Positions 27,377-40,414 of a stretch of DNA of 64,000 nucleotides are shown piece after piece (within the stretch, counting starts at the first letter, position 1; each line of letters starts with the position of its first letter). This DNA comes from Deltaproteobacteria bacterium (GTDB taxonomy: Bacteria > CG2-30-53-67): assembly GCA_013151235.1 (NCBI GenBank), contig JAADIO010000005.1, forward strand, positions 1 through 64,000, given 5' to 3'. The notes below the pieces were generated by a model. The model saw nothing but the letters and a program-made list of their open reading frames with translations. It was not told the DNA's origin and did no database searches. Both the position numbers and the translations under genes were made by a program.

Positions 27377-28560
27377 GACAGGGTTGTTCCTTCCCGAACA
27401 TGCCGGAACTCCCGGACCATCTTCTCACGGACTTCCGGATCCCGCAGAATCATAAGCCCGGTGAGCGCCAGGGCACAGGCCGCCTTTTTCATGACCGTCT
27501 CGGCCGCTTCACTCCTCGCCGCTTCCGCAAAACCTGCGGTATGAGGCATCGACTCAAAATCACAGATCAAAAGTTCCGGATGAATGGCCGGCACCCTGCG
27601 GCTGAGATTGCCGATATCCGAAGAACCGATATAACGCAGTTCATCCTGATCGTCAATGGGGATCCCGAACGCTTCTATCTTCTCCTGAAAGACCGCAGCC
27701 ATCGTCCGGTTCGGCATCATTCCCTCGTAAACGGGCCCCGTGTTTTCAATCTCGAACGTACAGCCTGTCGCCCGCGCCGCCCCTTCGATACACCCCTTCA
27801 CACATTCTACAAGCTTTTCCATGACCGGCCTTTCCAGTGCCCGAACGGCAATCCGTGCCTCGGTAAAAGCGGGGATGATATTCGGGGCGTCCCCTCCCCG
27901 GGTAATGATGCCGTGAATCCGGCCGTCATCGGGAACCTGCTGCCGAAGCGCATTGATCCCGGAAAAAGCAAGGATCATCGCATCAAGGGCATTGATGCCG
28001 AGTTCCGGAGCAGCCGCTGCATGACTGCTCTTCCCGTAAAAGGCGATGCGGAGCTCCGTCATGGCCAGGGTCCGTTTTACCACAGCATTTCGCACCGACG
28101 GATGGAACATAAGCGCCGCATCGATCCCGTCGAAACACCCCTTCTCTATCAGGCGGATCTTCCCGCCGTGCATTTCCTCGGCCGGGGTTCCTACCACCTG
28201 GACAGCACCGGCACACGCAGGGAAAACCGATACCAGTGCGGCACCGGCCCCGACACCGGCCGCAGCAATCAGGTTATGACCGCAGGCATGCCCGAGGTTC
28301 GGCAGGGCATCGTACTCGGCAAGGAAGGCGATCGTCGGACCCGGATCGGAACTTCGGGAGGCCCGGAAGGCCGTTGAGACCCCGCCGATGCCCGGCTCCA
28401 CCTCAAACCCCTGTTGCTGCAGGAAGTCCGTGAGAAGTGCTGCGGCTTCCCATTCTTCATAACCTAATTCCGGCCGGTCGTGGATCGTACGGCTGATCCG
28501 AACCAGTTCCGGAAAAAGCGACTCAACCGTCTCAACAACTTTCTTCTCGAGAGAATCCAT
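27373..28560 (-). CDS. M20 family metallopeptidase/amidohydrolase
   Basis: PELGYEE, AEYDALP, HACGHNLIA, GTPAEE, GSSDIGN. Confidence 0.92.
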   Translation of the reverse strand: MDSLEKKVVETVESLFPELVRISRTIHDRPELGYEEWEAAALLTDFLQQQGFEVEPGIGGVSTAFRASRSSDPGPTIAFLAEYDALPNLGHACGHNLIAAAGVGAGAALVSVFPACAGAVQVVGTPAEEMHGGKIRLIEKGCFDGIDAALMFHPSVRNAVVKRTLAMTELRIAFYGKSSHAAAAPELGINALDAMILAFSGINALRQQVPDDGRIHGIITRGGDAPNIIPAFTEARIAVRALERPVMEKLVECVKGCIEGAARATGCTFEIENTGPVYEGMMPNRTMAAVFQEKIEAFGIPIDDQDELRYIGSSDIGNLSRRVPAIHPELLICDFESMPHTAGFAEAARSEAAETVMKKAACALALTGLMILRDPEVREKMVREFRHVREGTTLS

Positions 28561-28569
28561 CCCGCGACC

Positions 28570-29331
28570 CTACCTTCTGACCGGCCGATGCTTTTTTTGC
28601 AACAAAGAATCACCGGTCCCGCTCCCCTTTTTCCCCTTCAAATGCTCCAGCGCCTGACGAGCCGCCTGCTGCTGTGCTTCCTTTTTGCTCTTGCCGCTCC
28701 CTTGACCGAGAACTTCCCCCTTGACGGAAAGTTCCATGACAAAGATCCGGTCATGGTCGGGACCGGTCGCCCGGCAGAGGGTATATTCCGGCAATACACC
28801 GAACCGTTCCTGACAGGCCTCCTGAAAGGTCGTCTTGTAATCAAAGGGATGTTTCTGTTCCACAACCTTCGGGATCAAGGTCTCAAAATGTTTCAGGATC
28901 ACATCATAGGTCGCCCGGAATCCCTGATCCAGATAGATCCCGGCAATGACCGCTTCCAGGGCATCGGAGAGCAGAGAATCCTTCTCCCGGCCGCCGGTCT
29001 GCTCTTCCCCTTTGCCCAGGAAGAGAAAATCTCCGATCCCGATCTTCCGGGCGACCCCGGCCAGCGTGGTCTCATTGACCAGATTGGCCCGCGCCTTGGA
29101 AAGGGCACCTTCGTCCAGGTCCGGGTAGGCCCGATAGAGATAAATACTGATAATCAACCCCAGGACGGAGTCTCCCAGAAACTCCTGCCGTTCATTATCT
29201 TCCGGATGCAGGCCGGGGTTTTCATTACTGTGGGACTTGTGTGTCAGGGCCGTAATCAGGTAGGGAAGGTGGCGGAAAGAAACCCCAAGGTTTTTTTCCA
29301 ACCGGGATAATCCATTCAACTCTGGGTTCAT
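28570..29331 (-). CDS. rnc: Ribonuclease III
   Basis: ALTHKS, NERQEFLGDSVL signature, C-terminal dsRNA-binding domain. Confidence 0.97.
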   Translation of the reverse strand: MNPELNGLSRLEKNLGVSFRHLPYLITALTHKSHSNENPGLHPEDNERQEFLGDSVLGLIISIYLYRAYPDLDEGALSKARANLVNETTLAGVARKIGIGDFLFLGKGEEQTGGREKDSLLSDALEAVIAGIYLDQGFRATYDVILKHFETLIPKVVEQKHPFDYKTTFQEACQERFGVLPEYTLCRATGPDHDRIFVMELSVKGEVLGQGSGKSKKEAQQQAARQALEHLKGKKGSGTGDSLLQKKHRPVRR

Positions 29332-29349
29332 AGTGGACTCGAATAACCT

Positions 29350-29375
29350 GTGACGGTCCTCCGGCGGACCGTCAC
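29350..29375. other. Perfect 10-bp hairpin between fabF and rnc
   Basis: GTGACGGTCC-TCCGGC-GGACCGTCAC, directly after the fabF stop codon. Confidence 0.6.
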
Positions 29376-30620
29376 TCAGTCAACAGAACGGAACACCAGC
29401 GCACCGTTCGTTCCCCCAAACCCCATGGAGTTACTCAGGACGGTTCGCACCCGGGTACGACGCGCTTCGTTGGGTACGTAATCAAGATCGCATTCAGGAT
29501 CGGGGACCTCATAGTTAACCGTGGGAGGCAGGATCCCCTCTTTGATCGCCATGGCCGAGAAGACCGCTTCAATCCCACCGGCGGCACCAAGGAGATGGCC
29601 GGTCATCGATTTCGTCGAACTGACGGCAACCTTCCGGGCGTGATCACCGAAGACCTTCTTGATCGCCATGGTCTCAAACTGATCATTAAACTTCGTGGAT
29701 GTCCCATGGGCATTAATATAGTCGATCTCTTCCGGTGCGATTCCAGCGTCCTTGAGGGCCATGGTCATGCAACGGGCCGCCCCTTCCCCGTCGGGAGCGG
29801 GAGAGGTAATATGATACGCATCACCGCTCAAACCGTACCCTGCTACTTCCGCATAAATCGCGGCCCCCCGTTTTTTCGCCGACTCCATCTCTTCGAGGAC
29901 CACCACACCTGCTCCTTCCGCAATCACGAAGCCGTCCCGTTCCGCATCAAAGGGCCGGCTTGCCCGTTCCGGCTCATCATTCCGTGTGGAAAGGGCCTTC
30001 ATCGCGGAGAACCCTCCCACGGCGAGAGAACAGATCGTCGATTCCGTCCCGCCGGCGATCATGGCATCCGCCGCCCCGCGCTGGATCAACCGGAAGGCAT
30101 CCCCAATGGAGTGCGTCCCGGTGGCACAAGCCGTGACCGGCGCCGAATTGGGGCCCCGGGCACCAAAACGGATGGCCACCTGTCCTGAAGCGAGATTGAT
30201 AATCACCATGGGGATAAAGAAGGGGGTCACCCGACGCGGGCCGCGCTCCAGGAGGACCTTGTGATACTTCTCGATCGCGGGAAGCCCGCCGATCCCGGCG
30301 CCGACGATCACGCCGACTCGGTCGGCATTGCCCTCATCAATGACCAGGCCGGAATTTTCCATCGCCATCTGGCCGGCCGCAAGGGCATAATGGATGAAGG
30401 TATCCATTTTCTTCTGTTCTTTTTTCTCAATATAGCGATCGATTTCGAATCCCTTGACCTCGCCTGCAATCTGAGAAGGATATCCTTCCGGGTCAAACCG
30501 GGTAATCCGGTCGATCCCGGAACGGCCGTGAATCAACCCGTCCCAGGTCGTGGCAAGATCATTCCCCAGAGGGGTCACAACCCCCATCCCTGTGATCACA
30601 ACTTTACGCATCGTTTCCAT
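29376..30620 (-). CDS. fabF: Beta-ketoacyl-ACP synthase II
   Basis: [42 protein letters not shown]; start may be 30611. Confidence 0.96.
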
Positions 30621-30624
30621 CCGC

Positions 30625-30662
30625 AAAAAAAGGGGGCCGCCCTCCCAAGGATCGGTTCCCCC
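30625..30662 (-). terminator. Rho-independent terminator/attenuator after acpP
   Basis: Minus strand GGGGGAACCG...CGGCCCCC followed by TTTTTTT. Confidence 0.6.
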
Positions 30663-30684
30663 TCATACATTTCTCCGCAAGGAA

Positions 30685-30909
30685 TCAGGAGTGTGCCTTG
30701 ATATAATCCACTGCGTGCTGCACAGTCGTAATTTTCTCCGCCTCTTCATCGGGAATCTCGATCCCGAACTCTTCCTCGAGGGCCATGACCAGTTCGACCG
30801 TATCGAGAGAATCGGCGCCCAGGTCATCGACAAAGGACGCTTCCGGCTTTACGTTTGCTGCATCGACATCCAACTGCTCCGCAATAATCTTCTTGACCTT
30901 TTCTTCCAT
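30685..30909 (-). CDS. acpP: Acyl carrier protein
   Basis: [20 protein letters not shown]. Confidence 0.98.
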
Positions 30910-31027
30910 TGTTTTCTTGCCTCCTAAATAAAAAATAAAACCCTCTACATTTCTGATAATACACCAATCACCGGATGATTATGCCTAGTCCGTACCATTT
31001 ATCTTTTCCCTCTTTATTCTTTATGAG

Positions 31028-31192
31028 CACACGGACCTTTTTGCAAAGCCGTCACATTCAACCCATCCGCTTCCACGGCACAGCAGAAAGTTCCGGATGC
31101 AAGGCGCGAAGGTTTTGAGAAGTGAGGCGTACTGTTCCGTACGCCGCAACGCACTCAAAACCTGATAAACGCAGCAGATGGCGAAGCCGTCA
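31028..31192. mobile_element. MITE-like repeat (full copy plus an extra right end)
   Basis: TCCGGATGCAAGGCGCGAAGGTTTTG...GTGAGGCGTAC...GTACG...AAAACCTGATAAACGCAGCAGA shared with 35122 and 36505; ends GAAGCCGTCA, which includes the fabG TGA. Confidence 0.75.
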
Positions 31193-31930
31193 CATGTACA
31201 TGCCGCCATTGACATGAATCACCTGCCCCGTAATATAGGCCGCCTCATCGGAAGCCAGAAACCGTACGGCGGAGGCGACATCCTCGGGGGACCCTAACTT
31301 GCCCATCGGGATCTGTGCGTAGAGATTCTCCTTCACATCCCCCGCCAGAGACTGCGTCATGGCCGTATCGATAAAGCCGGGCGCAACCGCGTTACAGGTA
31401 ATTCCCCGGGAAGCGAGTTCGCGGGCCACGGTTTTTGTCAGGCCGATCACCCCCGCCTTGGAGGCCACGTAGTTGGCCTGTCCCGCATTCCCCATTGCTC
31501 CCACGATCGAGGCAATGTTGATGATCCGTCCGCTTCTCTGCTTCATCATCGGCCGGGCCACCGCCTTCGAACAGAGGAAGGAGCCTTTCAGATTAATGCT
31601 CAACACCAGGTCCCAGTCTTCTTCCTTCATCCGCATGAGAAGACCGTCTCTCGTGATCCCCGCATTGTTGACAAGAATGTCGATCTTTCCGAATTCGTCA
31701 ATCCCCTTTCTGATCATCTCCGAGACCTCTTCGGCGTCGGCGACGTTTGCCTGCAGGGCAATCGCCTTACGACCGACGGCACGGATCTCCTCCGCCGTTT
31801 TCTCCGCCATCTCCAGGTTCACATCAGAGATAATACAGTCGGCGCCGTCCCGGCTCAAGGCCTGAGCAATCGATTTACCGATCCCCTGGGCCGAGCCGGT
31901 AACCAGTGCAACTTTTCCTTGCAGTGACAT
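31190..31930 (-). CDS. fabG: 3-oxoacyl-ACP reductase
   Basis: TGSAQGIG, NNAGITRD, NYVASKAG, VNGGMYM. Confidence 0.96.
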   Translation of the reverse strand: MSLQGKVALVTGSAQGIGKSIAQALSRDGADCIISDVNLEMAEKTAEEIRAVGRKAIALQANVADAEEVSEMIRKGIDEFGKIDILVNNAGITRDGLLMRMKEEDWDLVLSINLKGSFLCSKAVARPMMKQRSGRIINIASIVGAMGNAGQANYVASKAGVIGLTKTVARELASRGITCNAVAPGFIDTAMTQSLAGDVKENLYAQIPMGKLGSPEDVASAVRFLASDEAAYITGQVIHVNGGMYM

Positions 31931-32874
31931 CAGACCTCCCTACCGGCCGGGATCTCTTTCAGAAGATTTTTCAGCCCCTCGGCATCGGCCGGATTAAAGA
32001 CCCGCACGTTGCGATCAATTCTTCGGATCAGGTTGGACAGAACCTTTCCCGGCCCCACTTCGACAAAGATCTCGATCCCGCGAGCGAGCATGGCCCGGAT
32101 GCTCTCCTCCCACCGCAGTGTCGACGTCAACTGTCGTACCAGGCCTTCTCTCACGGCCTCTGCAATACGGACTTCCTCAGCGGCAACATTGTTCATCAGC
32201 GGAACCGCCAGGTCCTCCATCGGCGTAACATCCAGGGCCTCCTGTAACTTTTTTGAGACCGGCTCCATCAGGGGCGAATGCGAAGGAACACTCACAGGCA
32301 GGACCAATGCACGCTTCGCTCCAGCCTCCTTCGCACGGTCGGAGGCAACCTGCACCGCTTCCCGCTCCCCGGAGATCACGATCTGCCCGGGGCAGTTCAG
32401 GTTGGCCGGGACAACCAAGCCATCGACATCTTCACAGATCTTCTGCAACAGTGCAAGTTCCATCCCGAGGATCGCCGCCATGGCCCCCTCTCCTTCGGGC
32501 ACGGCCTCCTGCATGAAAATTCCCCGTTTACGCACCAGGGAAACGGCATCAGCCAGGTCAAATCCCCCGGCCGCCGTGACAGCGCTGTATTCACCGAGGC
32601 TGTGCCCGGCCACGAAGGCCGGTTTCCATCCCGTTTCGGAATCAAGAACCCGGTACACCGCCATGCTCGTCGTCAGCAGCGCCGCCTGGGTCAGCTCCGT
32701 CCGGTTTAATTCCTTCGCCGGACCCTCCGTACAGAGACGGAGCAGATCAAGTTGAATGGTATCGGAGGCCTCTTCAAAGACACGGCGTGCCGCAATAAAA
32801 TTTTGGACCAGATCGGCTCCCATCCCGACCGACTGAGAACCCTGACCCGGAAAGACAAAAGCTGTATTTTCCAC
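31930..32874 (-). CDS. fabD: Malonyl-CoA:ACP transacylase
   Basis: FPGQGSQ, GHSLGEY, SVPSHS. Confidence 0.96.
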   Translation of the reverse strand: MENTAFVFPGQGSQSVGMGADLVQNFIAARRVFEEASDTIQLDLLRLCTEGPAKELNRTELTQAALLTTSMAVYRVLDSETGWKPAFVAGHSLGEYSAVTAAGGFDLADAVSLVRKRGIFMQEAVPEGEGAMAAILGMELALLQKICEDVDGLVVPANLNCPGQIVISGEREAVQVASDRAKEAGAKRALVLPVSVPSHSPLMEPVSKKLQEALDVTPMEDLAVPLMNNVAAEEVRIAEAVREGLVRQLTSTLRWEESIRAMLARGIEIFVEVGPGKVLSNLIRRIDRNVRVFNPADAEGLKNLLKEIPAGREV

Positions 32875-32913
32875 TGAGAAATCTCCAACCCGGCAGAGCC
32901 GGAGCCAAACAAC

Positions 32914-33067
32914 TTTTCACCGCAGAGGCGCAGAGGGCGCGAAGAAGAGCCTTTCCAGCAGGACACACCTCGCAATCTTCACTGCCTCTCTGCAGTGCAA
33001 TCAATTTGCCTTGTGTTTTAACTAACGTCCGGTTTTACTCTGCGTCCTTTGCGTTTCTGCGGTAAAA
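32914..33067. repeat. Imperfect inverted pair of 9-nt-period repeats
   Basis: TTTCACCGCAGAGGCGCAGAGGGCGCGAAG ... CTCTGCGTCCTTTGCGTTTCTGCGGTAAAA; same family as 8953-8980. Confidence 0.65.
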
Positions 33068-33088
33068 TTTTTATTTTCTGCAATCCGA

Positions 33089-34276
33089 TTATTTCCGGAA
33101 GGCCTTGGTCATCATCGGAACGATCTCGAAAAGGTCCCCCACGATCCCGTAGGTCGCCGCTTTAAAGATCGGAGCCTCGGGATCCTTGTTGATCGCAACA
33201 ATCACATCGGAAGATTGCATCCCCGCCAGATGCTGCACCGCACCGGAGATCCCGCAGGCAATATAGAGCTTGGGACAGACGGTCTTCCCGGTCTGGCCGA
33301 CCTGGTGAGAGTAGGCGATCCACTCCGCATCGACGACCGCTCTGGAGGCCCCGACGGCACCGCCTAAAACCCTGGCCAAGTCCTCGATGACGGAAAAATT
33401 CTCTTTACTCCCCACGCCTCGCCCCCCGCTGACGATGATGTCGGCCTCGGTAATGTTGACGGTATCTTCGATCTCTTCAACGGTCTGAATCACCTCCCGA
33501 TGAAGATCCGCTACGGTCCCGTTCATCATCACGGGAATCACCTCACCTTTACGGCCGGCTTCTTCCGGCGCCTGTTTGAAGACCTTGTGCCGGACCGTAG
33601 CCATCTGGGGCCGGTGATTGGGACAGAGGATCGTCGCCAGGATATTGCCGCCGAAGGCGGGGCGGGTCTGAAGAAGTTCCCGTTTCCCCGGATCGACATC
33701 CAGACCGGTGCAATCGGCGGTCAACCCCGTTCCGATCCGTGCCGCCACCCGGGGAATAAAGGAACGGCCGATGGCCGTCGCACCCGTGAGCACGATTTCC
33801 GGTTTCTCCTTTTCGATCAGGTCCGCCAGAACCGACGCATAGGCATCGCCGTTGAAGTCGGCCAACATGGGGTCATCGGCGAGATAGACCCGGTCGGCGC
33901 CGTGGGCGATCAACCATTCCGACTGTTGTGAGATCTCGTGACCGAGGAGAACGGCGCTCAGATGAGTATCGAGACGATCGGCCAGTTTTCGCCCTTCATT
34001 AAGCAGTTCCAGGACCACCGTAGAGATCTTTCCCTTCCGCTGCTCTGCAAAGACCCAGATCCCCCGGTAGGCCGAAAGATCCATCGAAGAGGCGGCGGAC
34101 TGTTCCTCTTCCATCGTAAGGGCGACAAACTCACAGACCTCAACGCAGGCGCCGCAGAGGGTACACTCCTCGCTGATCACCGCGGTGCCGTCAATGATCT
34201 CGATGGCGCCGAACGGACACTGATCGGCACAGATGCCGCAACCCGTACATTTTTCCTTGCAGACGATAATCGCCAT
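33089..34276 (-). CDS. etfA: Electron transfer flavoprotein alpha subunit with N-terminal 2x[4Fe-4S] ferredoxin domain
   Basis: CTGCGIC..CP and CTLCGAC..C; GLTADCT, TRPAFGGN, QVGQTGKTV, GISGAVQH, AINKD. Confidence 0.95.
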   Translation of the reverse strand: MAIIVCKEKCTGCGICADQCPFGAIEIIDGTAVISEECTLCGACVEVCEFVALTMEEEQSAASSMDLSAYRGIWVFAEQRKGKISTVVLELLNEGRKLADRLDTHLSAVLLGHEISQQSEWLIAHGADRVYLADDPMLADFNGDAYASVLADLIEKEKPEIVLTGATAIGRSFIPRVAARIGTGLTADCTGLDVDPGKRELLQTRPAFGGNILATILCPNHRPQMATVRHKVFKQAPEEAGRKGEVIPVMMNGTVADLHREVIQTVEEIEDTVNITEADIIVSGGRGVGSKENFSVIEDLARVLGGAVGASRAVVDAEWIAYSHQVGQTGKTVCPKLYIACGISGAVQHLAGMQSSDVIVAINKDPEAPIFKAATYGIVGDLFEIVPMMTKAFRK

Positions 34277-34286
34277 TCCCTGTTTC

Positions 34287-35072
34287 CTACACGATATTCA
34301 GCCGCTCAATCTCAGAGACCAGCCGCGCAACCTGCGCCTCCGGTTCCCCTTCGAGAATCTCTCCCTGACGGCGAAACTCCGGCATAAAGATCTTTGAAAC
34401 CTTGGTGGGAGACCCCGAAAGGCCGAGACGAGCCGGATTGGCGCCGATCTCTTCGGCGCTCCAGACCGGAATCTCTATTTTTTTTGCCTTCATCTTTCCT
34501 TTCAGTGAAGGAAGGCGGGGTTCATTGATCTCCTTGACCACGGTAATCACGGCAGGGAGTCGGGTCTGCAAAAGGTCATACCCATCATCCATGAGCCGTT
34601 CCAGCCGCATGGTCCCCTCTGCGACTTCTTCGATCTTCCGCACATAGGCGGCAAATCCCCAGTGGAGATTCTCGGCGATCCCCGGCCCAACCTGGGCGGT
34701 GTCGCCATCAATGGCCTGTTTGCCGCAAAGGACAAGATCGGGTTCACCCATCTTTCGGATCGCCATGGCCAGCGTATAGGCGGTCGCAAGGGTATCGGAA
34801 CCGGCGAAGGCACGGTCCGAAACGAGAACGGCCTCATCGGCCCCCAGAGAGATCCCTTCCCGCAGAGCGGCCTCCGCCTGGGGCGGCCCCATGGTCAGGA
34901 GTGTCACCTCCCCGCCGAACCGTTCCCTGAGCCGGAGCGCCTCTTCAAGGGCGTACATATCAAAGGGGTTCACAATGCTCGGCACCCCCTCACGGACGAG
35001 GGTGTTCGTCTCCGGATCGATCCGGACATCGGCCACATCAGGCACCTGTTTAATACAAACAACGATTCTCAT
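34287..35072 (-). CDS. etfB: Electron transfer flavoprotein beta subunit
   Basis: VCIKQVPD, NPFD, MGPPQA, DRAFAGSDTLATA, GKQAIDGDTAQVGP. Confidence 0.95.
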   Translation of the reverse strand: MRIVVCIKQVPDVADVRIDPETNTLVREGVPSIVNPFDMYALEEALRLRERFGGEVTLLTMGPPQAEAALREGISLGADEAVLVSDRAFAGSDTLATAYTLAMAIRKMGEPDLVLCGKQAIDGDTAQVGPGIAENLHWGFAAYVRKIEEVAEGTMRLERLMDDGYDLLQTRLPAVITVVKEINEPRLPSLKGKMKAKKIEIPVWSAEEIGANPARLGLSGSPTKVSKIFMPEFRRQGEILEGEPEAQVARLVSEIERLNIV

Positions 35073-35121
35073 CTTGAACTCTTCATTTTCATTCGATCAA
35101 CCGGAACTTCGTCCGAAATCT

Positions 35122-35250
35122 GTGACGGCAATGTAAAAAATCCGGATGCAAGGCGCGAAGGTTTTGTGGAGTGAGGCATACTTTTTCGTACGTTCCAACG
35201 AACACAAAACCTGATAAACGTAGCAGACGGTTTTTTTACATTGCCGTCAC
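35122..35250. mobile_element. MITE-like element with perfect 19-bp terminal inverted repeats
   Basis: GTGACGGCAATGTAAAAAA (35122-35140) / TTTTTTACATTGCCGTCAC (35232-35250); internal sequence shared with other copies; abuts the acyl-CoA dehydrogenase TGA. Confidence 0.8.
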
Positions 35251-36429
35251 TCACCCGACGGGGACCGCTTCTTTCTTCCCCGTATATTCCTTCACCAGTT
35301 CCAGGCCGATCACGTTACGCTGAATCTGGTTGGTCCCTTCGTAGATCTGAAGGATCTTGGCATCCCGCATCATCTTTTCCACCGGATACTCCCGCATGTA
35401 GCCGTACCCCCCCATGACCTGAACGGCATCCGTGGTCACGCGCATGGCCGTATCGGTAGCAAAGAGCTTCACCATCGCCGCTTCCTTGGAAAAGTTTTTC
35501 GGATTGCTGTCCATGAACTTACAGGTAGAATAAAGAAGCGACCGGGCCGCTTCGGTCTGGGTCGTCATATCGGCCAGCATATGCTGGATCGCCTGCTGGG
35601 CCACAATCGGCTTGCCGAACTGGACCCGGGTCTTGGCATAAACGACCGCCTCGTCGATCGCCCCCTGAGCCAGTCCCACTCCCTGGGCGGCAATGCCGGG
35701 ACGGGACTTGTCGAGGGTCTTCATGGCGACAATGAACCCCATCCCCTCCCGGGAAAGAAGATTCTTCGCCGGGACCCGGCAATCCTCAAAGATCAGCTCC
35801 CGAGTAGCGGAGGCCCGAATCCCCATCTTTTTTTCTTTCTTTCCGAACTTGAACCCCTCCATCCCCTTTTCAAGGATGAAGGCCGAGGCACCCCGGGCCC
35901 CGCGGGACCGGTCGGTCATGGCAATCACCGTATAGATATCCGCCTCCCCGCCGTTCGTAATCCACTGCTTGGTGCCATTCAGGATATAAGAATCTCCGTC
36001 TTTCACGGCCGTCGTCTGAATCCCGCCGGCATCGGACCCGGCGTTCGGCTCGGTCAGCCCGAAAGCCGCCAGGCTCTTACCCGACGCAATCCGGGGGAGA
36101 TAGGCTTCTTTCTGTTCTTCGTTTCCATAGAGGAGGATCGGATAGCAGCCGAGACCGCTCGCTGCAAAAGAGACCGAAACGGCAATACAGGCCCGGGAGA
36201 GCTGTTCGATGGCAATACAGTTTTCCAGTATCCCGCCTCCCATACCGCCGTATTCTTCAGGGATGTAGAGGCCGAACAGATCGGAATCAGCCAGGACATT
36301 TACGATTTCCCAGGGGAATTCCTCTTTTTCATCAAGTTTCGCCCGGACGGGGATCACCTTCTCTCGGGCGATCTGCGCGGCCAGGTCCCGGATCATCAAC
36401 TGTTCTTCCGTCAAAAAATAGTCCATCAC
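35251..36429 (-). CDS. Acyl-CoA dehydrogenase (short-chain/butyryl-CoA dehydrogenase-like)
   Basis: AFGLTEPNAGSDA, NGTKQWITNG, KMGIRAS, GGYGYMREYPVE, QIYEGTNQIQR. Confidence 0.93.
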   Translation of the reverse strand: MMDYFLTEEQLMIRDLAAQIAREKVIPVRAKLDEKEEFPWEIVNVLADSDLFGLYIPEEYGGMGGGILENCIAIEQLSRACIAVSVSFAASGLGCYPILLYGNEEQKEAYLPRIASGKSLAAFGLTEPNAGSDAGGIQTTAVKDGDSYILNGTKQWITNGGEADIYTVIAMTDRSRGARGASAFILEKGMEGFKFGKKEKKMGIRASATRELIFEDCRVPAKNLLSREGMGFIVAMKTLDKSRPGIAAQGVGLAQGAIDEAVVYAKTRVQFGKPIVAQQAIQHMLADMTTQTEAARSLLYSTCKFMDSNPKNFSKEAAMVKLFATDTAMRVTTDAVQVMGGYGYMREYPVEKMMRDAKILQIYEGTNQIQRNVIGLELVKEYTGKKEAVPVG

Positions 36430-36504
36430 TGTCTCCCCTGATCAACACCCGTTTTTTTGTGGCTGTTAGTAACATATTTTCATGTGTACAGTCAAACTTT
36501 TTAC

Positions 36505-36667
36505 GCAGCAGGCGGACTTTTTACGAGACCATCAAAGGTCCGGCAAAGGAAAAAGCTCCGAATGCAAGGCGCGAAGGTTTCGAGGAGTGAGGCATACTCG
36601 TTTGTACGTCACAGCAATCTCAGAACCCGACAAACGCAGCAGACGGACTTTTCTACAAAGCCGGCTA
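36505..36667. mobile_element. MITE-like repeat (extra right end plus full copy) abutting the fabH stop
   Basis: GCAGCAGGCGGACTTTTTACGAGACCATCA then ATGCAAGGCGCGAAGG...GTGAGGCATAC...AAACGCAGCAGACGGACTTTTCTACAAAGCCGG. Confidence 0.72.
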
Positions 36668-37648
36668 CCATCGAACCATGGCGGAAGCCCAGGTCAGCCC
36701 CCCGCCGAAGGCCTCGAAGAGAATATGGTCCCCCTCATGCATCCGGCCCGCTGCGACGGCTTCATCAAGAGCGATTGGGATAGATGCCGCGGACGTATTC
36801 CCATAACGGTCGAGGTTTACCACGACCTTCTCCATCGGGAGCCCTAATCGTTTGGCCGTGGCGGAGATGATCCTGATATTAGCCTGATGGGGGACAAGAA
36901 GATCGACATCCCCACAGGTAAGCCCGTTCGCCTCCACTGCCTCCAGTACCGCCTCTTCAAGGGTTTTTACGGCCACCTTGAAAAGCTCGCTCCCCCGCAT
37001 CATCAGGTACTCGGCCTCGGTCTGGATCAGCTCCTCGGTAATCGGGTTTCTGGATCCCTTCTTCGCCACCATGAGCATGTCGGCATAAGTCCCGTCGGCA
37101 TGGAGATGGGTCGAGAGGATCCCTGATTCCCCCTCTTCCCCTTGCAGAAGAACCGCCCCGGCGCCGTCTCCGAAGAGAACACAGGTTGTCCGGTCCCGCC
37201 AGTCAAGAATCTTGGAGAACTTCTCGGCACCGATGACAAGTGCCCGTTTCACCGAACCGGCCCGGATAAACTGGTCGGCAATACCGAGACCGTAGATAAA
37301 ACCGGAACAGGCGGCGGAGATATCGAAGGCCGCGACTCCGCTGATCCCTAAACGGTGCTGAACAATACAGGCGGAGGAGGGAAAGGACATATCGGGTGTG
37401 GCCGTTGCCAGAATGATCAGGTCGATCGACGAAGGCGCAATCCCGGTCTTTTCCACCACGGACCGGGCGGCATGAGCGGCCATATCCGAGGTCGTCTCCT
37501 CTGTGGCGGCAATCCGTCGCTCCCGGATCCCCGTCCGGGTTCGGATCCATTCATCAGTCGTATCCACCCGTTTTTCCAGGTCGGCATTTGTCAGAACACG
37601 ATCGGGGAGATAACGCCCGGTTCCGATGATACGGCTTCTCAGCATCAC
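36665..37648 (-). CDS. fabH: Beta-ketoacyl-ACP synthase III
   Basis: RTGIRERR, AACSGF, LFGDGAGA, PHQANIRI, YGNTSAAS, FGGGLTW. Confidence 0.97.
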   Translation of the reverse strand: MMLRSRIIGTGRYLPDRVLTNADLEKRVDTTDEWIRTRTGIRERRIAATEETTSDMAAHAARSVVEKTGIAPSSIDLIILATATPDMSFPSSACIVQHRLGISGVAAFDISAACSGFIYGLGIADQFIRAGSVKRALVIGAEKFSKILDWRDRTTCVLFGDGAGAVLLQGEEGESGILSTHLHADGTYADMLMVAKKGSRNPITEELIQTEAEYLMMRGSELFKVAVKTLEEAVLEAVEANGLTCGDVDLLVPHQANIRIISATAKRLGLPMEKVVVNLDRYGNTSAASIPIALDEAVAAGRMHEGDHILFEAFGGGLTWASAMVRW

Positions 37649-37672
37649 GTTCCTAAGTGGTTTACAAGGGGC

Positions 37673-38710
37673 TTATTGAAAGATCACAGCGCCGGAGGAT
37701 CGCATCTCCCGAATGACGCCGTCAAACTGCTGCATGCCGCCGGCGATCTTCTCCGGGATCCCGTGCCTCACACACTCGCCGGCACCCCGAATGCCATTCA
37801 TGAGGGCCTTGACAGACGATCCGCCGTGGCTGATTATGACATTTCCGTTGATCCCGAGCAAAGGCGCCCCCCCGTACTCCGAATAGTCGAAACGTTTCCT
37901 GAAACGGGCAAAGGCCGGAGCAAGCAACGAATAGCCGATCTTCCGCCAACCGCTCGCTTCAATTTCGTCCCGCAGAACGATCCCCATGGCGGATGCAACC
38001 CCCTCGCTGATCTTCAGAGCGATATTCCCGACAAAGCCGTCACAGACAATCACGTCCACGTTCCCGTTATAGACATCCCGTCCTTCCACATTCCCGATGA
38101 AGTGGATCGGTAACGATTTTAACGTCTTCAGCACCTCCCGGGTCAGTTCCGTCCCCTTCATTTCCTCGGAACCTATGTTCAAAAGACCTACCGACGGGTT
38201 CTCCTTGCCGAGGATATGCCGGGCGTAGAGTTCGCCCATAATCGCAAACTGAATCAGATGGTAAGGCCGGGAATCGACATTGGCGCCGACATCAAGAATC
38301 AGAGAGACCCCCTTCACGTTCGGCAGCACGGTAGCGATCGCCGGCCGGTCCACACCGGGGACCGTGCGCAGGACGAACTGTGAGGTTGCCATAACGGCGC
38401 CGGTGTTGCCTGCACTCAAAAGAGCATCGGCGGCACCTTCCTTGACCAAATTCACGGCAAGACGGATCGATGAATTCTTTTTTTTACGGAGGGCTTCAAC
38501 GGGAGACTCGTCCATCCGGACAACTTGTTCCGCATGATGGATGGTGATGCCCAGACCGGAGATGCGGTACTGTTCCAACTCCTCTCCGATCTTGGCCTCA
38601 TCACCCACCAGGATGATCTCGTGTCCGAACTTCCCGGCGGCAAGAACAGCGCCCTCTACCACCCGTTGCGGAGCATAATCTCCGCCCATGGCATCGACGG
38701 CAATTTTCAA
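37673..38710 (-). CDS. plsX: Phosphate acyltransferase PlsX
   Basis: IAVDAMGGDYAP, SAGNTGA, DRPAI, CDGFVGN, YGGAPLLG. Confidence 0.97.
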   Translation of the reverse strand: MKIAVDAMGGDYAPQRVVEGAVLAAGKFGHEIILVGDEAKIGEELEQYRISGLGITIHHAEQVVRMDESPVEALRKKKNSSIRLAVNLVKEGAADALLSAGNTGAVMATSQFVLRTVPGVDRPAIATVLPNVKGVSLILDVGANVDSRPYHLIQFAIMGELYARHILGKENPSVGLLNIGSEEMKGTELTREVLKTLKSLPIHFIGNVEGRDVYNGNVDVIVCDGFVGNIALKISEGVASAMGIVLRDEIEASGWRKIGYSLLAPAFARFRKRFDYSEYGGAPLLGINGNVIISHGGSSVKALMNGIRGAGECVRHGIPEKIAGGMQQFDGVIREMRSSGAVIFQ

Positions 38711-38772
38711 TGGTTCCCCAGAATATTATAAAACGTGAAGGCACAGACGGACTTCTTGCAAAACCGCAAGTG

Positions 38773-38955
38773 TTATACCTCTTCGACAGCGATGACCTCT
38801 CGTCCCTTGTAGTGTCCGCAATTCGGGCAGACATAATGGGGCAGTTTCGGCTCCCGGCATTTCGGGCAGAGCGACAGGGATGCCGTTTTTGCCTTGATAT
38901 GAGTCCTTCGCTGGTCACGACGCATCTTCGATTTTCTTCGTGTCGGTACGGCCAT
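38773..38955 (-). CDS. rpmF: 50S ribosomal protein L32 (zinc-binding type)
   Basis: MAVPTRRKSK..RDQRRTH, CPKC...HYVCPNCGHYKG. Confidence 0.96.
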   Translation of the reverse strand: MAVPTRRKSKMRRDQRRTHIKAKTASLSLCPKCREPKLPHYVCPNCGHYKGREVIAVEEV

Positions 38956-38960
38956 AATCT

Positions 38961-39512
38961 TTACCTCTCCTGATCCTTGTTGAGCAGTTCTTTTAATATT
39001 GCCAGACGGGGGTCCGTAACCGCCGGCGCACAACCGCACTCGCGGCGATTCCGGTTTTCACCGCATTGCGGGCAGATCCCGCGACAAGCCTCCCGGCACA
39101 GGGGCTGAGCAGGAAGAATCTCCGCCACCTGCCCCATGAGCAACTCATCGATATCGATCTCTCCGCCGCTGTAGTACAGGACATCCATCTCGTCGGCAAC
39201 AAGCTCCACCTCGCCCCGCTGCCGCACTTCGGAGGCCGGACGATATTCCACATCAAAGGCCGCATCTTCCGTAAAACCGAAGGGGGCAAGACAGCGGCCG
39301 CATTGCAGGGTCAGCTTCGTCCGGATCTTCCCCGAAACGTTCACCGATTCTTCCACCCGGCTGAAAACGAGATGGGCGCGAATCTTCTCTTCAAAATGCA
39401 GATCCGGATCATTGGCAAAGAGCCGGTTCCCGTCCTCTTCCACCTCAACCCGTAATCCCTCCGAAGAGATCTCTCCAATGCAAACCTTCATGTGGATCTT
39501 TCCCTTGGACAT
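38961..39512 (-). CDS. yceD: YceD/DUF177 family protein
   Basis: CGRCL, PLCREACRGICPQCG, DPRLAILKELL; upstream of rpmF. Confidence 0.92.
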   Translation of the reverse strand: MSKGKIHMKVCIGEISSEGLRVEVEEDGNRLFANDPDLHFEEKIRAHLVFSRVEESVNVSGKIRTKLTLQCGRCLAPFGFTEDAAFDVEYRPASEVRQRGEVELVADEMDVLYYSGGEIDIDELLMGQVAEILPAQPLCREACRGICPQCGENRNRRECGCAPAVTDPRLAILKELLNKDQER

Positions 39513-39613
39513 CAGGGAATATTCATGAAAACAGGGCCTTCGGAAGACGGACCGCCGCCCTCAATAATGTCGTGGCGCATCCCGAAAGACCCTGTCCACT
39601 GCTAAAGTTATTT

Positions 39614-39642
39614 AATATACTGAGTCACCGGAGGAATGTCAA
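39614..39642 (-). promoter_or_regulatory. Sigma70 promoter of the yceD-rpmF-plsX-fab operon
   Basis: TTGACA-17 nt-TATATT on the minus strand. Confidence 0.7.
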
Positions 39643-39739
39643 GGGGAAATTTCTCCCGAAAACCACGCCTAACCTCATGTAATCACAAAGAAATCATCAA
39701 TTTAAGATAAGGATACGGACTCCTTGAGAATGCAGGAAT

Positions 39740-40414
39740 CTATGTGGCGTCGGTATGACGAATGATCTTCCCTTCCACCATGTAGACGACCATCTCCGCT
39801 ATATTGGTGGCATGATCGGCGATCCGCTCAAGGTACTTGGCAACGAATATGGTATTCGTCGCCCTTGTAATACTCGCCGGATCTTCAATCATATAAGTCA
39901 GCAGCTCGCGAAGAATCTGCTTGTTCAACTCATCAATTGCGTCATCCCCGCCGCAGACGGCATAAGCGAGGCGGGTATCGTGATGCACGAACGCATCAAG
40001 GGCATCTTTCAACATACGCTGCGCCATCTCGGCCATCCGGGGAATATCGATATAGGGCTTCAACCGGGACTCCCGGTTCAGCTCCAGAGTCCGTTCGGCG
40101 ATATTAACCGCCTCATCGGCAATCCGCTCGATATCGGTGCTGATCTTCAGAGCCGTGGTCAGGAACCGGAGATCCCGTGCCGCCGGCTGCCGGAGTGCCA
40201 GGATCCGGATCGCCAGCTCGTCGATCTCCACCTCCAGACGATCACAGTCCGGGTCCCGGTCGATCACCTCCCCCGCAAGGCCCGAGTCCCTTTTCCGCAA
40301 CGCCCGGATCGAATCCCGGATCATTTCCTCAGCAAGCCCTCCCATGTAGAGCAGCTTTTCCTTGAGCTGCGACAGATCCTGGTTGAACTGCTGGGAGGTG
40401 TGCTGGATATCCAT
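39740..40414 (-). CDS. phoU: Phosphate signalling protein PhoU
   Basis: QPAARDLR, DIERIAD, LERIADHATNIAE. Confidence 0.96.
   Translation of the reverse strand: MDIQHTSQQFNQDLSQLKEKLLYMGGLAEEMIRDSIRALRKRDSGLAGEVIDRDPDCDRLEVEIDELAIRILALRQPAARDLRFLTTALKISTDIERIADEAVNIAERTLELNRESRLKPYIDIPRMAEMAQRMLKDALDAFVHHDTRLAYAVCGGDDAIDELNKQILRELLTYMIEDPASITRATNTIFVAKYLERIADHATNIAEMVVYMVEGKIIRHTDAT

Follow-up and report, generated by a model that had tools for sequence, protein, structure and literature searches.

Here we describe a three-gene module inside the fatty-acid synthesis (fab) operon of a Deltaproteobacteria bacterium (GTDB lineage CG2-30-53-67), which we consider rather likely to be an NADH-driven enoyl-acyl carrier protein (ACP) reductase of the Bcd/CarCDE type for type II fatty-acid synthesis. 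The module is encoded at positions 33089-36429 on the minus strand of a stretch of 64,000 nucleotides (assembly GCA_013151235.1, contig JAADIO010000005.1, positions 1 to 64,000), which in its full length is called the window in the following. It consists of an acyl-CoA dehydrogenase (ACAD) and the two subunits of an electron-transfer flavoprotein (Etf), EtfB and EtfA, the latter carrying a ferredoxin (Fd) domain at its N-terminus, and judged by the sequences of these subunits it probably reduces ferredoxin. The enoyl-ACP reductase (ENR) catalyzes the pace-setting step of bacterial fatty-acid synthesis and is the enzyme of the pathway that is most often replaced by unrelated proteins. The genome encodes no canonical ENR, the linkage of the module to fab genes is conserved, and its distribution is anti-correlated with that of FabI, FabK, FabL and FabV; these findings support the role in enoyl reduction which a preliminary description of this DNA had put forward. 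The accessible literature, mostly outside subscription journals and supplements, yielded no description of an ACAD/Etf enoyl-ACP reductase or of such a synteny.

Results and Discussion

The gene order that had been read from the letters, yceD-rpmF-plsX-fabH-[ACAD-etfB-Fd-etfA]-fabD-fabG-acpP-fabF-rnc on the minus strand, was fully reproduced: the three open reading frames (ORFs) of the module lie exactly where the preliminary description had placed them, and the NCBIfam and Pfam assignments agree. It had also claimed that fabI, fabK, fabL and fabV are absent from the window, and indeed profile searches found none of them there, nor in the whole assembly (2.62 Mb, 73 contigs, 99.25% complete). 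The best match to the FabK model TIGR03151 reached 90.9 bits when the genome was searched and 110 bits when the whole protein was scored, at a cut-off of 453. For FabV, the Pfam domain gave no match in the genome and, in the same search, in 0 of 14 control genomes, while the positive control for this search was the detection of FabV in 10 of 201 sampled genomes. The short-chain dehydrogenase/reductase (SDR) model PF13561 matched at five places, none of them scoring as FabI or FabL: FabG, a FabG-like SDR beside bioF, a DprE2-like SDR, a domain in a 923-aa ORF and a sub-threshold fragment. The fatty-acid synthesis set is otherwise present, with FabH, FabD, FabG, FabF, ACP and one FabZ, so that the pathway is complete except for enoyl reduction. 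The check for a canonical ENR was extended to the 8 other genomes of the family and gave none there either.

The ACAD gene (35251-36429, minus strand; P0001, 392 aa) encodes the proposed catalytic subunit with the domains Acyl-CoA_dh_N, _M and _1 (PF02771 127.6, PF02770 100.2 and PF00441 177.7 bits, all above the cut-offs). Its closest solved relative is 5ol2_C, the Bcd of Clostridioides difficile Bcd-EtfAB, with 437 bits, followed by 4l1f (404) and 1buc (368); CarC gives 335 bits and the prolyl-ACP dehydrogenase 4irn 219 bits. E364 in the motif YEGT, which we take to be the catalytic glutamate of the ACAD family, is invariant in 10 of 10 orthologues. EtfB (34287-35072, minus strand; P0002, 261 aa; Pfam ETF 167.5 bits) contains the two motifs reported before, DRAFAGSDTLAT and DGDTAQVGP, letter for letter. 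Its best solved relatives all come from bifurcating complexes (7koe_A 250.7, CarD 6fah_B 248.3, 4kpu_B 243.6 and 5ol2_B 223.1 bits), and it scores 218-251 bits to five small subunits of bifurcating Etfs versus ~107 bits to human ETF-beta. In Fd-EtfA (33089-34276, minus strand; P0003, 395 aa) two Fer4 stretches at residues 8-49 precede the domains ETF (182.3 bits) and ETF_alpha (129.7 bits). The translation contains CTGCGICADQCP and CTLCGACVEVCE, and two CxxCxxCxxxC motifs fall within the first 49 residues. The best solved relative is CarE 6fah_A (434.3 bits, residues 1-391) with all eight cluster cysteines aligned, and the scores to bifurcating Etfs are 291-434 bits versus ~172 bits to human ETF. 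The N-terminal 2x[4Fe-4S] domain that had been seen earlier is thereby confirmed by the Fer4 matches, the cysteine motifs and a CarE alignment that starts at residue 1. In sequence, both Etf subunits resemble the NADH-binding bifurcating type with two FADs rather than the quinone-linked respiratory type, which contains AMP.

The best NCBIfam match of the ACAD is AcrC with 467.8 bits, under the cut-off of 640; EtfB reaches 236.4 bits to AcrB (cut-off 475) and EtfA 384.4 bits to AcrA (cut-off 600). All three subunits thus stay below the curated cut-offs of the AcrABC equivalogs, and the proteins of the module contain no domain of the FabI, FabL, FabV or FabK families. A second EtfBA pair is encoded elsewhere in the genome (contig C62:23515-30586), in a beta-oxidation-type cluster that also has a FadB-like frame of 720 aa and two ACADs, one of them in a frame of 602 aa. 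Because this cluster has its own EtfBA and ACADs, the fab-linked set is an additional, separate module.

The distribution of the module was analyzed in 201 genomes (the own genome and 200 relatives, 178 families), which were searched for ACAD, FabI, FabK, FabV, Fd-EtfA, FabF and FabL with thresholds of at least 484 bits for ACAD (the upper edge of a gap that reaches down to 444), 230 for FabI, 200 for FabK, 260 for FabL-like proteins and 289 for FabV. FabF was found in 181 of the 201 genomes and the ACAD orthologue in 56. All 56 ACAD carriers contain FabF; conversely, none of the 20 FabF-negative genomes has the orthologue. The ACAD gene lies within 10 kb of fabF in 34 carriers and is unlinked in 15, while for the remaining 7 the fabF position was not listed. 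An EtfA match with E <=1e-90 is present in 48 of the 56, and 43 of these matches cover the ferredoxin domain. Most importantly, a known ENR was detected in 5 of 56 carriers vs 80 of 125 FabF-positive non-carriers (Fisher p 7e-13), and in 5 of 49 vs 80 of 123 when the own family is left out (p 2e-11), p values that are too favourable, since related genomes do not count as independent observations. The anti-correlation with FabI, FabK, FabL and FabV, which had been proposed as a check, is hence strong. The five ENR-bearing carriers have ACADs of 57-63% identity, and among the carriers with at least 64% identity 0 of 41 have a known ENR. In total, 51 of the 56 carriers, from dozens of families, possess the ACAD and none of the four known ENRs.

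Within the own family, 6 of 8 other genomes encode an ACAD that is 87-96% identical (gene maps were drawn for five), and it sits between fabH and fabD or fabG wherever the contig permits. Orthologues of 57-74% identity in unrelated families are again fab-linked, in varying orders: we found fabH-ACAD-etfBA-fabD, plsX-ACAD-etfBA-fabG-fabF, fabF-rnc-ACAD(-etfBA) and fabF-etfBA with the ACAD elsewhere. One genome (G027) has plsX-fabH-fabD-fabG-acpP-fabF-rnc-ACAD-etfB-etfA, and in several other phyla the ACAD gene directly follows rnc. The arrangement fabF-rnc-ACAD is also seen in G017, where etfB-etfA lie elsewhere with no other dehydrogenase beside them, and in G024, where only Fd-etfA was found elsewhere. 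In G114 (L119, G114:C11, 2867-6198) the order is plsX-fabD-fabG-acpP-fabF-etfB-Fd-etfA with the ACAD orthologue on another contig; with etfB and Fd-etfA directly after fabF, the linkage of the Etf genes to fab genes thus does not depend on the ACAD. This recurrence in the family, together with the rearranged forms in many others, shows that the neighbourhood is not a chance one. The question whether the synteny is conserved can thus be answered: the linkage of ACAD(-Etf) to fab genes is kept over dozens of families.

Named public genomes were scanned with an alignment of ten orthologues, and the best 80 of 600 confirmed stretches were mapped by tblastn. For the 48 loci of at least 59% identity, core fab genes are found within 9 kb in 22, etf genes within 5 kb in 29 and either of the two in 35, whereas linkage to fab genes is seen at none of the 32 loci below 59%, of which 3 have etf genes. 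The named carriers, all of them metagenome-assembled genomes, belong to Nitrospirota, Syntrophobacteraceae, Desulfobulbaceae, Desulfocapsaceae, Omnitrophota, Planctomycetota (including Brocadiia), Verrucomicrobiota, Kiritimatiellota, Lentisphaerota, Elusimicrobiota, Spirochaetota and Dehalococcoidia, and to two Clostridia. Modules that are not fab-linked have housekeeping neighbours (VanY, SpoIIR, a class I (MetG-type) tRNA synthetase, a pseudouridine synthase, RadC, SMC and a GlmU-like protein).

For the ACAD tree (IQ-TREE quick mode, LG+G4) we used 91 rows, namely the ten members of the alignment, two paralogues of this genome and 79 of the 80 loci, the remaining locus being a fragment of 316 aa that was left out. 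A single clade of 63 rows with an SH-aLRT support of 100 contains all 32 fab-linked rows and the window ACAD, the latter within a subclade of 54 rows (support 98). Sequences of the G029 and G015 types are basal inside the clade. Bacillus-type and other ACADs with 52-56% identity fall outside.

The position of the module in the operon is informative as well. In the sister family of the same class, 5 of 5 genomes encode FabI (294-305 bits) and no ACAD orthologue, and fabH and fabF are separated by 2.48 kb in G011 and 2.44 kb in G012, compared to 6.04 kb in the window. The difference equals the size of the three-gene block (3.3 kb), which is absent from the sister-family slot. The statement that fabK can occupy the slot between fabH and fabD holds in our sample: in G020 and G014 the FabK gene comes immediately after fabH, and seven more genomes have it in the equivalent place, 2.2-2.4 kb upstream of fabF. 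We count it as support that the module would sit here as an in-place displacement of a known ENR.

Does the enzyme act on CoA or on ACP thioesters? Neighbouring genes of a CoA pathway, which could point to a CoA thioester, were not found; the neighbours are fab or housekeeping genes, and crotonase (crt), hydroxybutyryl-CoA dehydrogenase (hbd) and thiolase (thl) lie beside the module in none of the loci examined. We then turned to five carriers in which a loose first search gave a single ACAD candidate, within 10 kb of fabF (G135, G157, G180, G150 and G196; 95-100% complete). No credible match to 3-hydroxyacyl-CoA dehydrogenase (Hbd) was obtained in any of the five, the best one giving 23.5 bits over the Rossmann part only. 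Crotonase gave no match in three and only 19.7 bits in a fourth, and real matches were found in G135. FabZ is present in all five. With neither crotonase nor Hbd in 4 of 5 genomes and FabZ present, enoyl-ACP is therefore the only enoyl-thioester that is predicted by the gene content of these four. The alternative role suggested earlier, supply of acyl-CoA primers to FabH, is consequently disfavoured; it also leaves the missing reductase unexplained.

How might such a reductase operate? We propose that a flavoprotein complex of the Bcd-EtfAB/CarCDE type took over the enoyl-reduction step. NADH would reduce the FAD of EtfB, from where one electron would reach the ACAD flavin by way of the FAD that the mobile EtfA domain carries. 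After two rounds, the ACAD FAD would reduce the trans-2-enoyl-ACP produced by FabZ to the acyl-ACP. The other, low-potential electron would exit via the two [4Fe-4S] clusters of the N-terminal EtfA domain to ferredoxin. The net reaction would be 2 NADH + oxidised ferredoxin + enoyl-ACP -> 2 NAD+ + reduced ferredoxin + acyl-ACP. We infer the ACP substrate, the reductive direction, the activity at all chain lengths and the bifurcation from genomic context, phyletic pattern and similarity.

The closest parallel in architecture is CarCDE of Acetobacterium woodii (6fah), which is likewise built from three subunits and has a 2x[4Fe-4S] domain at the N-terminus of its large Etf subunit (scores of 434 bits for CarE, aligned over residues 1-391, 248 for CarD and 335 for CarC). 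It differs in that our ACAD is closer to Bcd than to CarC, in that the genes lie in a fab operon and not in a phenylacrylate-CoA pathway, and in that the proposed substrate is ACP-bound. The Bcd-EtfAB complexes of C. difficile and Acidaminococcus fermentans (5ol2, 4l1f/4kpu) provide the closest solved ACADs (437 and 404 bits), share the glutamate of YEGT and have bifurcating Etf subunits that are similar in sequence to those of the module. Their EtfA, however, has no ferredoxin domain, and their genes sit in crt-bcd-etfBA-hbd clusters, while the module here is without adjacent crt or hbd. Crotonase- and Hbd-type genes are absent altogether from several carrier genomes, as the searches of the single-ACAD carriers showed. 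With FabI, FabL and FabV (SDR) and FabK (FMN TIM barrel) the module shares the proposed reaction and, in the case of FabK, the same slot in other genomes, and the distributions are mutually exclusive for most genomes. There is no relationship in sequence or fold, and in contrast to these enzymes the module is a FAD/Fe-S system of three subunits for which a second electron acceptor is predicted. MbtN, PigA/RedW and the prolyl-ACP dehydrogenase 4irn show that the ACAD fold can act on phosphopantetheine-tethered substrates; they differ from the module in that they oxidise, belong to secondary-metabolite clusters and are distant (86.6 bits for MbtN, 241 and 247 for PigA/RedW, 219 for 4irn).

Several points weigh against an enoyl-ACP reductase. 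A candidate ENR is also encoded in six carriers. FabL (358-360 bits, over the cut-off) is found in G029 and G198, in addition to a FabK-like gene of ~303-313 bits, and FabL-like genes of 319 and 266 bits are present in G127 and G159. In G072 (L115, G072:C112, 3200-5233) a FabI adjoins the ACAD gene in divergent orientation with no fab genes nearby; we call it genuine with 298.9 bits to NF005615, which is below the cut-off of 391. In G086, whose ACAD has at least 64% identity, a FabK-like gene of divergent sequence (178 bits; L114, G086:C10, 10732-11748) lies between acpP and fabF within the ACAD-etfBA cluster. The pattern is repeated in G132 (counterpart at L118, G132:C67, 6017-6919), with an ACAD of 48% identity and no etfB beside ACAD and Fd-etfA. 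Two enoyl-ACP reductases per genome are common among bacteria. These carriers nevertheless mean that the module is not always the sole reductase, and another role linked to fatty-acid synthesis could exist. Furthermore, both a known ENR and the orthologue are missing in 45 FabF-positive genomes, so that either the ENR search is incomplete or other unknown reductases exist; some of these genomes, e.g., G050 and G132, hold more divergent ACAD-Etf modules. Besides the relatedness of the genomes mentioned above, it has to be considered that the score thresholds were set after the score distributions were known.

The protein itself also gives reason for caution. A scan for clade-specific residues (63 clade rows vs 27 outgroup rows) returned only two positions, G83 and K352, and no ACP-docking signature. 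The net charge differs little (-2.7 in the clade vs -5.9 in the outgroup), with no clear basic patch. The ACAD resembles an ordinary short-chain Bcd and its nearest characterised relatives are short-chain enzymes; a reductase of fatty-acid synthesis must take chains from C4 to C16-18. Two genomes of genus g3 of the same family, in which no ACAD, Etf or fabH was seen, were noted on this side too. Genus g3 was considered as a natural knock-out and rejected, the absence being uninformative because the contig of G007 ends inside fabD at an assembly break. A predicted complex of the ACAD dimer with ACP, computed without controls, scored 0.01 compared to a mark of 0.32; it gives no verdict and we use it for neither side.

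What else could the module be? An ordinary CoA-level Bcd-EtfAB that reduces crotonyl-CoA or branched enoyl-CoA, for FabH primers or for redox balance, and is merely co-regulated with the fab genes, would fit the solved butyryl-CoA dehydrogenases as nearest relatives (5ol2_C, 4l1f, 1buc), the acryloyl-CoA reductase models AcrC, AcrB and AcrA as top NCBIfam matches, the place after fabH in the own family and the missing ACP-specific signature. We regard it as unlikely: 51 of the 56 carriers would have no enzyme for the enoyl-ACP step, crt, hbd or thl accompany the module at none of the loci examined, and four of the five single-ACAD carriers, being without crotonase and Hbd, would have no source of substrate. 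In other phyla, moreover, the ACAD follows fabF-rnc and not fabH, and the three NCBIfam scores all stay under the equivalog cut-offs. Similarly improbable to us is an acyl-ACP dehydrogenase that works in the oxidative direction, introducing a trans-2 double bond to yield unsaturated or otherwise modified fatty acids (a FabX-like task) or passing electrons taken from lipids to NAD+ via the Etf, with an unrecognised ENR elsewhere. ACADs that act on carrier-bound acyl groups are known (MbtN, PigA/RedW and 4irn), some carriers, placed in the basal part of the clade, retain FabL, FabK or FabI, and a FabK-like gene shares the cluster in G086 and G132, all of which would suit such an enzyme. Yet the ACAD falls far short of the cut-offs of the MbtN, PigA and RedW models, the Etf resembles the NADH-linked bifurcating rather than the quinone-linked type, a FabX-like gene already exists in this genome and in 25 other carriers, and an unknown reductase would be needed in 51 genomes.

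This FabX-like gene leads to a further explanation, in which its product is the real ENR, running in reverse with a low-potential donor, and the ACAD-Etf module is auxiliary. The 370-aa protein of the NMO family (PF03060, 218 bits; minus strand of G000:C35:3971-5080, L014:1468-2580, G000 being the genome of the window) is the sole FabK-like protein of the genome and by its sequence is a FabX orthologue, not a FabK: it gives 434 bits to 7e1q/9lt5 over residues 3-358 vs 66 bits to FabK 7l00, and the alignment to 7e1q shows all four cluster cysteines and the histidine of SGGHQG retained. 7e1q is FabX of Helicobacter pylori, a decanoyl-ACP dehydrogenase/isomerase of unsaturated fatty-acid synthesis whose [4Fe-4S] cluster is ligated by four cysteines and which requires oxygen as acceptor (PMC8626469). 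FabX and FabK have a common fold and catalytic histidine and catalyze opposite reactions (PMC8626469), which makes a reversal conceivable, and every genome of the family (9 of 9) has the gene. We nonetheless judge this explanation very unlikely. Among the 53 of 201 sampled genomes with FabX-like genes are all five FabI-bearing genomes of the sister family and 12 further ones with FabI or FabK (17 in total), so the protein coexists with known reductases. It was found in 26 ACAD carriers, this genome included, and not in the other 30 of 56, for example G024, which is 98% complete. Here the gene is not fab-linked; its neighbour encodes a sigma-54 response regulator. As a side observation, the orthologue belongs to a lineage whose gene content gives the impression of an anaerobic life. 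We retain the NADH-driven enoyl-ACP reductase as the preferred assignment of the module.

The genes that flank the module are all confirmed by profile matches. Upstream on the minus strand lie fabH (36665-37648; TIGR00747 453.1 bits, cut-off 292.1), plsX (37673-38710; TIGR00182 369 bits, cut-off 243.4), rpmF (ORF as listed 38773-39039; Pfam Ribosomal_L32p 84 bits) and yceD (38961-39512; Pfam YceD 94 bits). The true start of rpmF is probably later than listed because the L32 domain spans residues 30-84. Downstream, also on the minus strand, follow fabD (31930-32874; TIGR00128 355 bits, cut-off 260.9), fabG (31190-31930; TIGR01830 347 bits, cut-off 297.75), acpP, which encodes the proposed substrate carrier (30685-30909; NF002149 137.8 bits, cut-off 106), fabF (29376-30626; TIGR03150 680.9 bits, cut-off 493.75) and rnc, encoding RNase III (28570-29331; TIGR02191 248.4 bits, over the curated cut-off). 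The best sigma-70-like promoter match is located upstream of yceD (39614-39642, minus strand; TTGACA-17-TATATT, 11 of 12 positions) and is a consensus match only. The promoter/terminator scan gave no terminator-like sites in the spacers between the cluster genes; since promoter-like and terminator-like sites are as frequent in the cluster as in shuffled sequence, the scan says little about transcription.

The spacers of the operon contain a dispersed hairpin repeat of ~125-130 nt with terminal inverted arms. One copy fills the spacer between ACAD and etfB (35122-35250, minus strand), and further copies are found in fab operon spacers at 36541-36663 and 31081-31187 (or 31092-31181). Three 107-nt copies are 77-79% identical to the reference copy, and 13 more places were detected on other contigs. 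The repeat RNA is predicted to fold into one long hairpin (-57.3 kcal/mol, z -8.2), and Rfam gave no match in 28000-40000. The repeat looks like a mobile MITE/REP-like element because the spacers differ in close relatives. The long double-stranded stems could be RNase III sites in an operon that ends with rnc. A different inverted repeat is present in the etfA-fabD spacer (32915-32951 / 33031-33067), whose arms of 37 nt show 73% complementarity and are separated by 79 nt.

Three further loci of the genome were noted. An open frame of 1849 aa with an open 3' end (G000:C18 ~70900-74700; L002:532-3786, plus strand) encodes an enoyl-reductase region of the FabK/PfaD kind and, behind it, a PfaA-like ketosynthase (TIGR02813 421 bits, under the cut-off) and is a predicted polyketide-type lipid synthase. 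The FabG-like SDR at G000:C54:104819-105529 (L010:1486-2259, minus strand; 218.5 bits, which does not reach the FabG cut-off) overlaps with the bioF end and may be a reductase of the biotin pathway. On G000:C22 (L011:1333-3368, minus strand) a DprE1-like FAD oxidase adjoins a DprE2-like SDR, a pair of the arabinose-epimerase type.

Conclusion

In summary, we find an ACAD-EtfB-Fd-EtfA module in the fab operon of a genome that has every other step of type II fatty-acid synthesis, and we assign it, with the reservations discussed above, as a likely NADH-driven enoyl-ACP reductase. If this is true, a large annotation gap would be filled in anaerobic and uncultured phyla; in the sample of 201 genomes, 51 FabF-positive ones have the module and no known ENR. 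We would only tentatively go further and suggest that an ACAD together with a bifurcating Etf bearing a ferredoxin domain constitutes a further structural class of bacterial ENR, widespread in anaerobes, that couples lipid synthesis to energy conservation. Should the complex bifurcate like its relatives, flavin-based electron bifurcation would for the first time be found as an integral part of a core anabolic pathway. Per C16 chain, ~7 reduced ferredoxins would then be gained back, which would be significant for cells that live close to the thermodynamic limit. Each elongation cycle would return some of its free energy as reduced ferredoxin, and the synthesis of membrane lipids would itself be energy-conserving.

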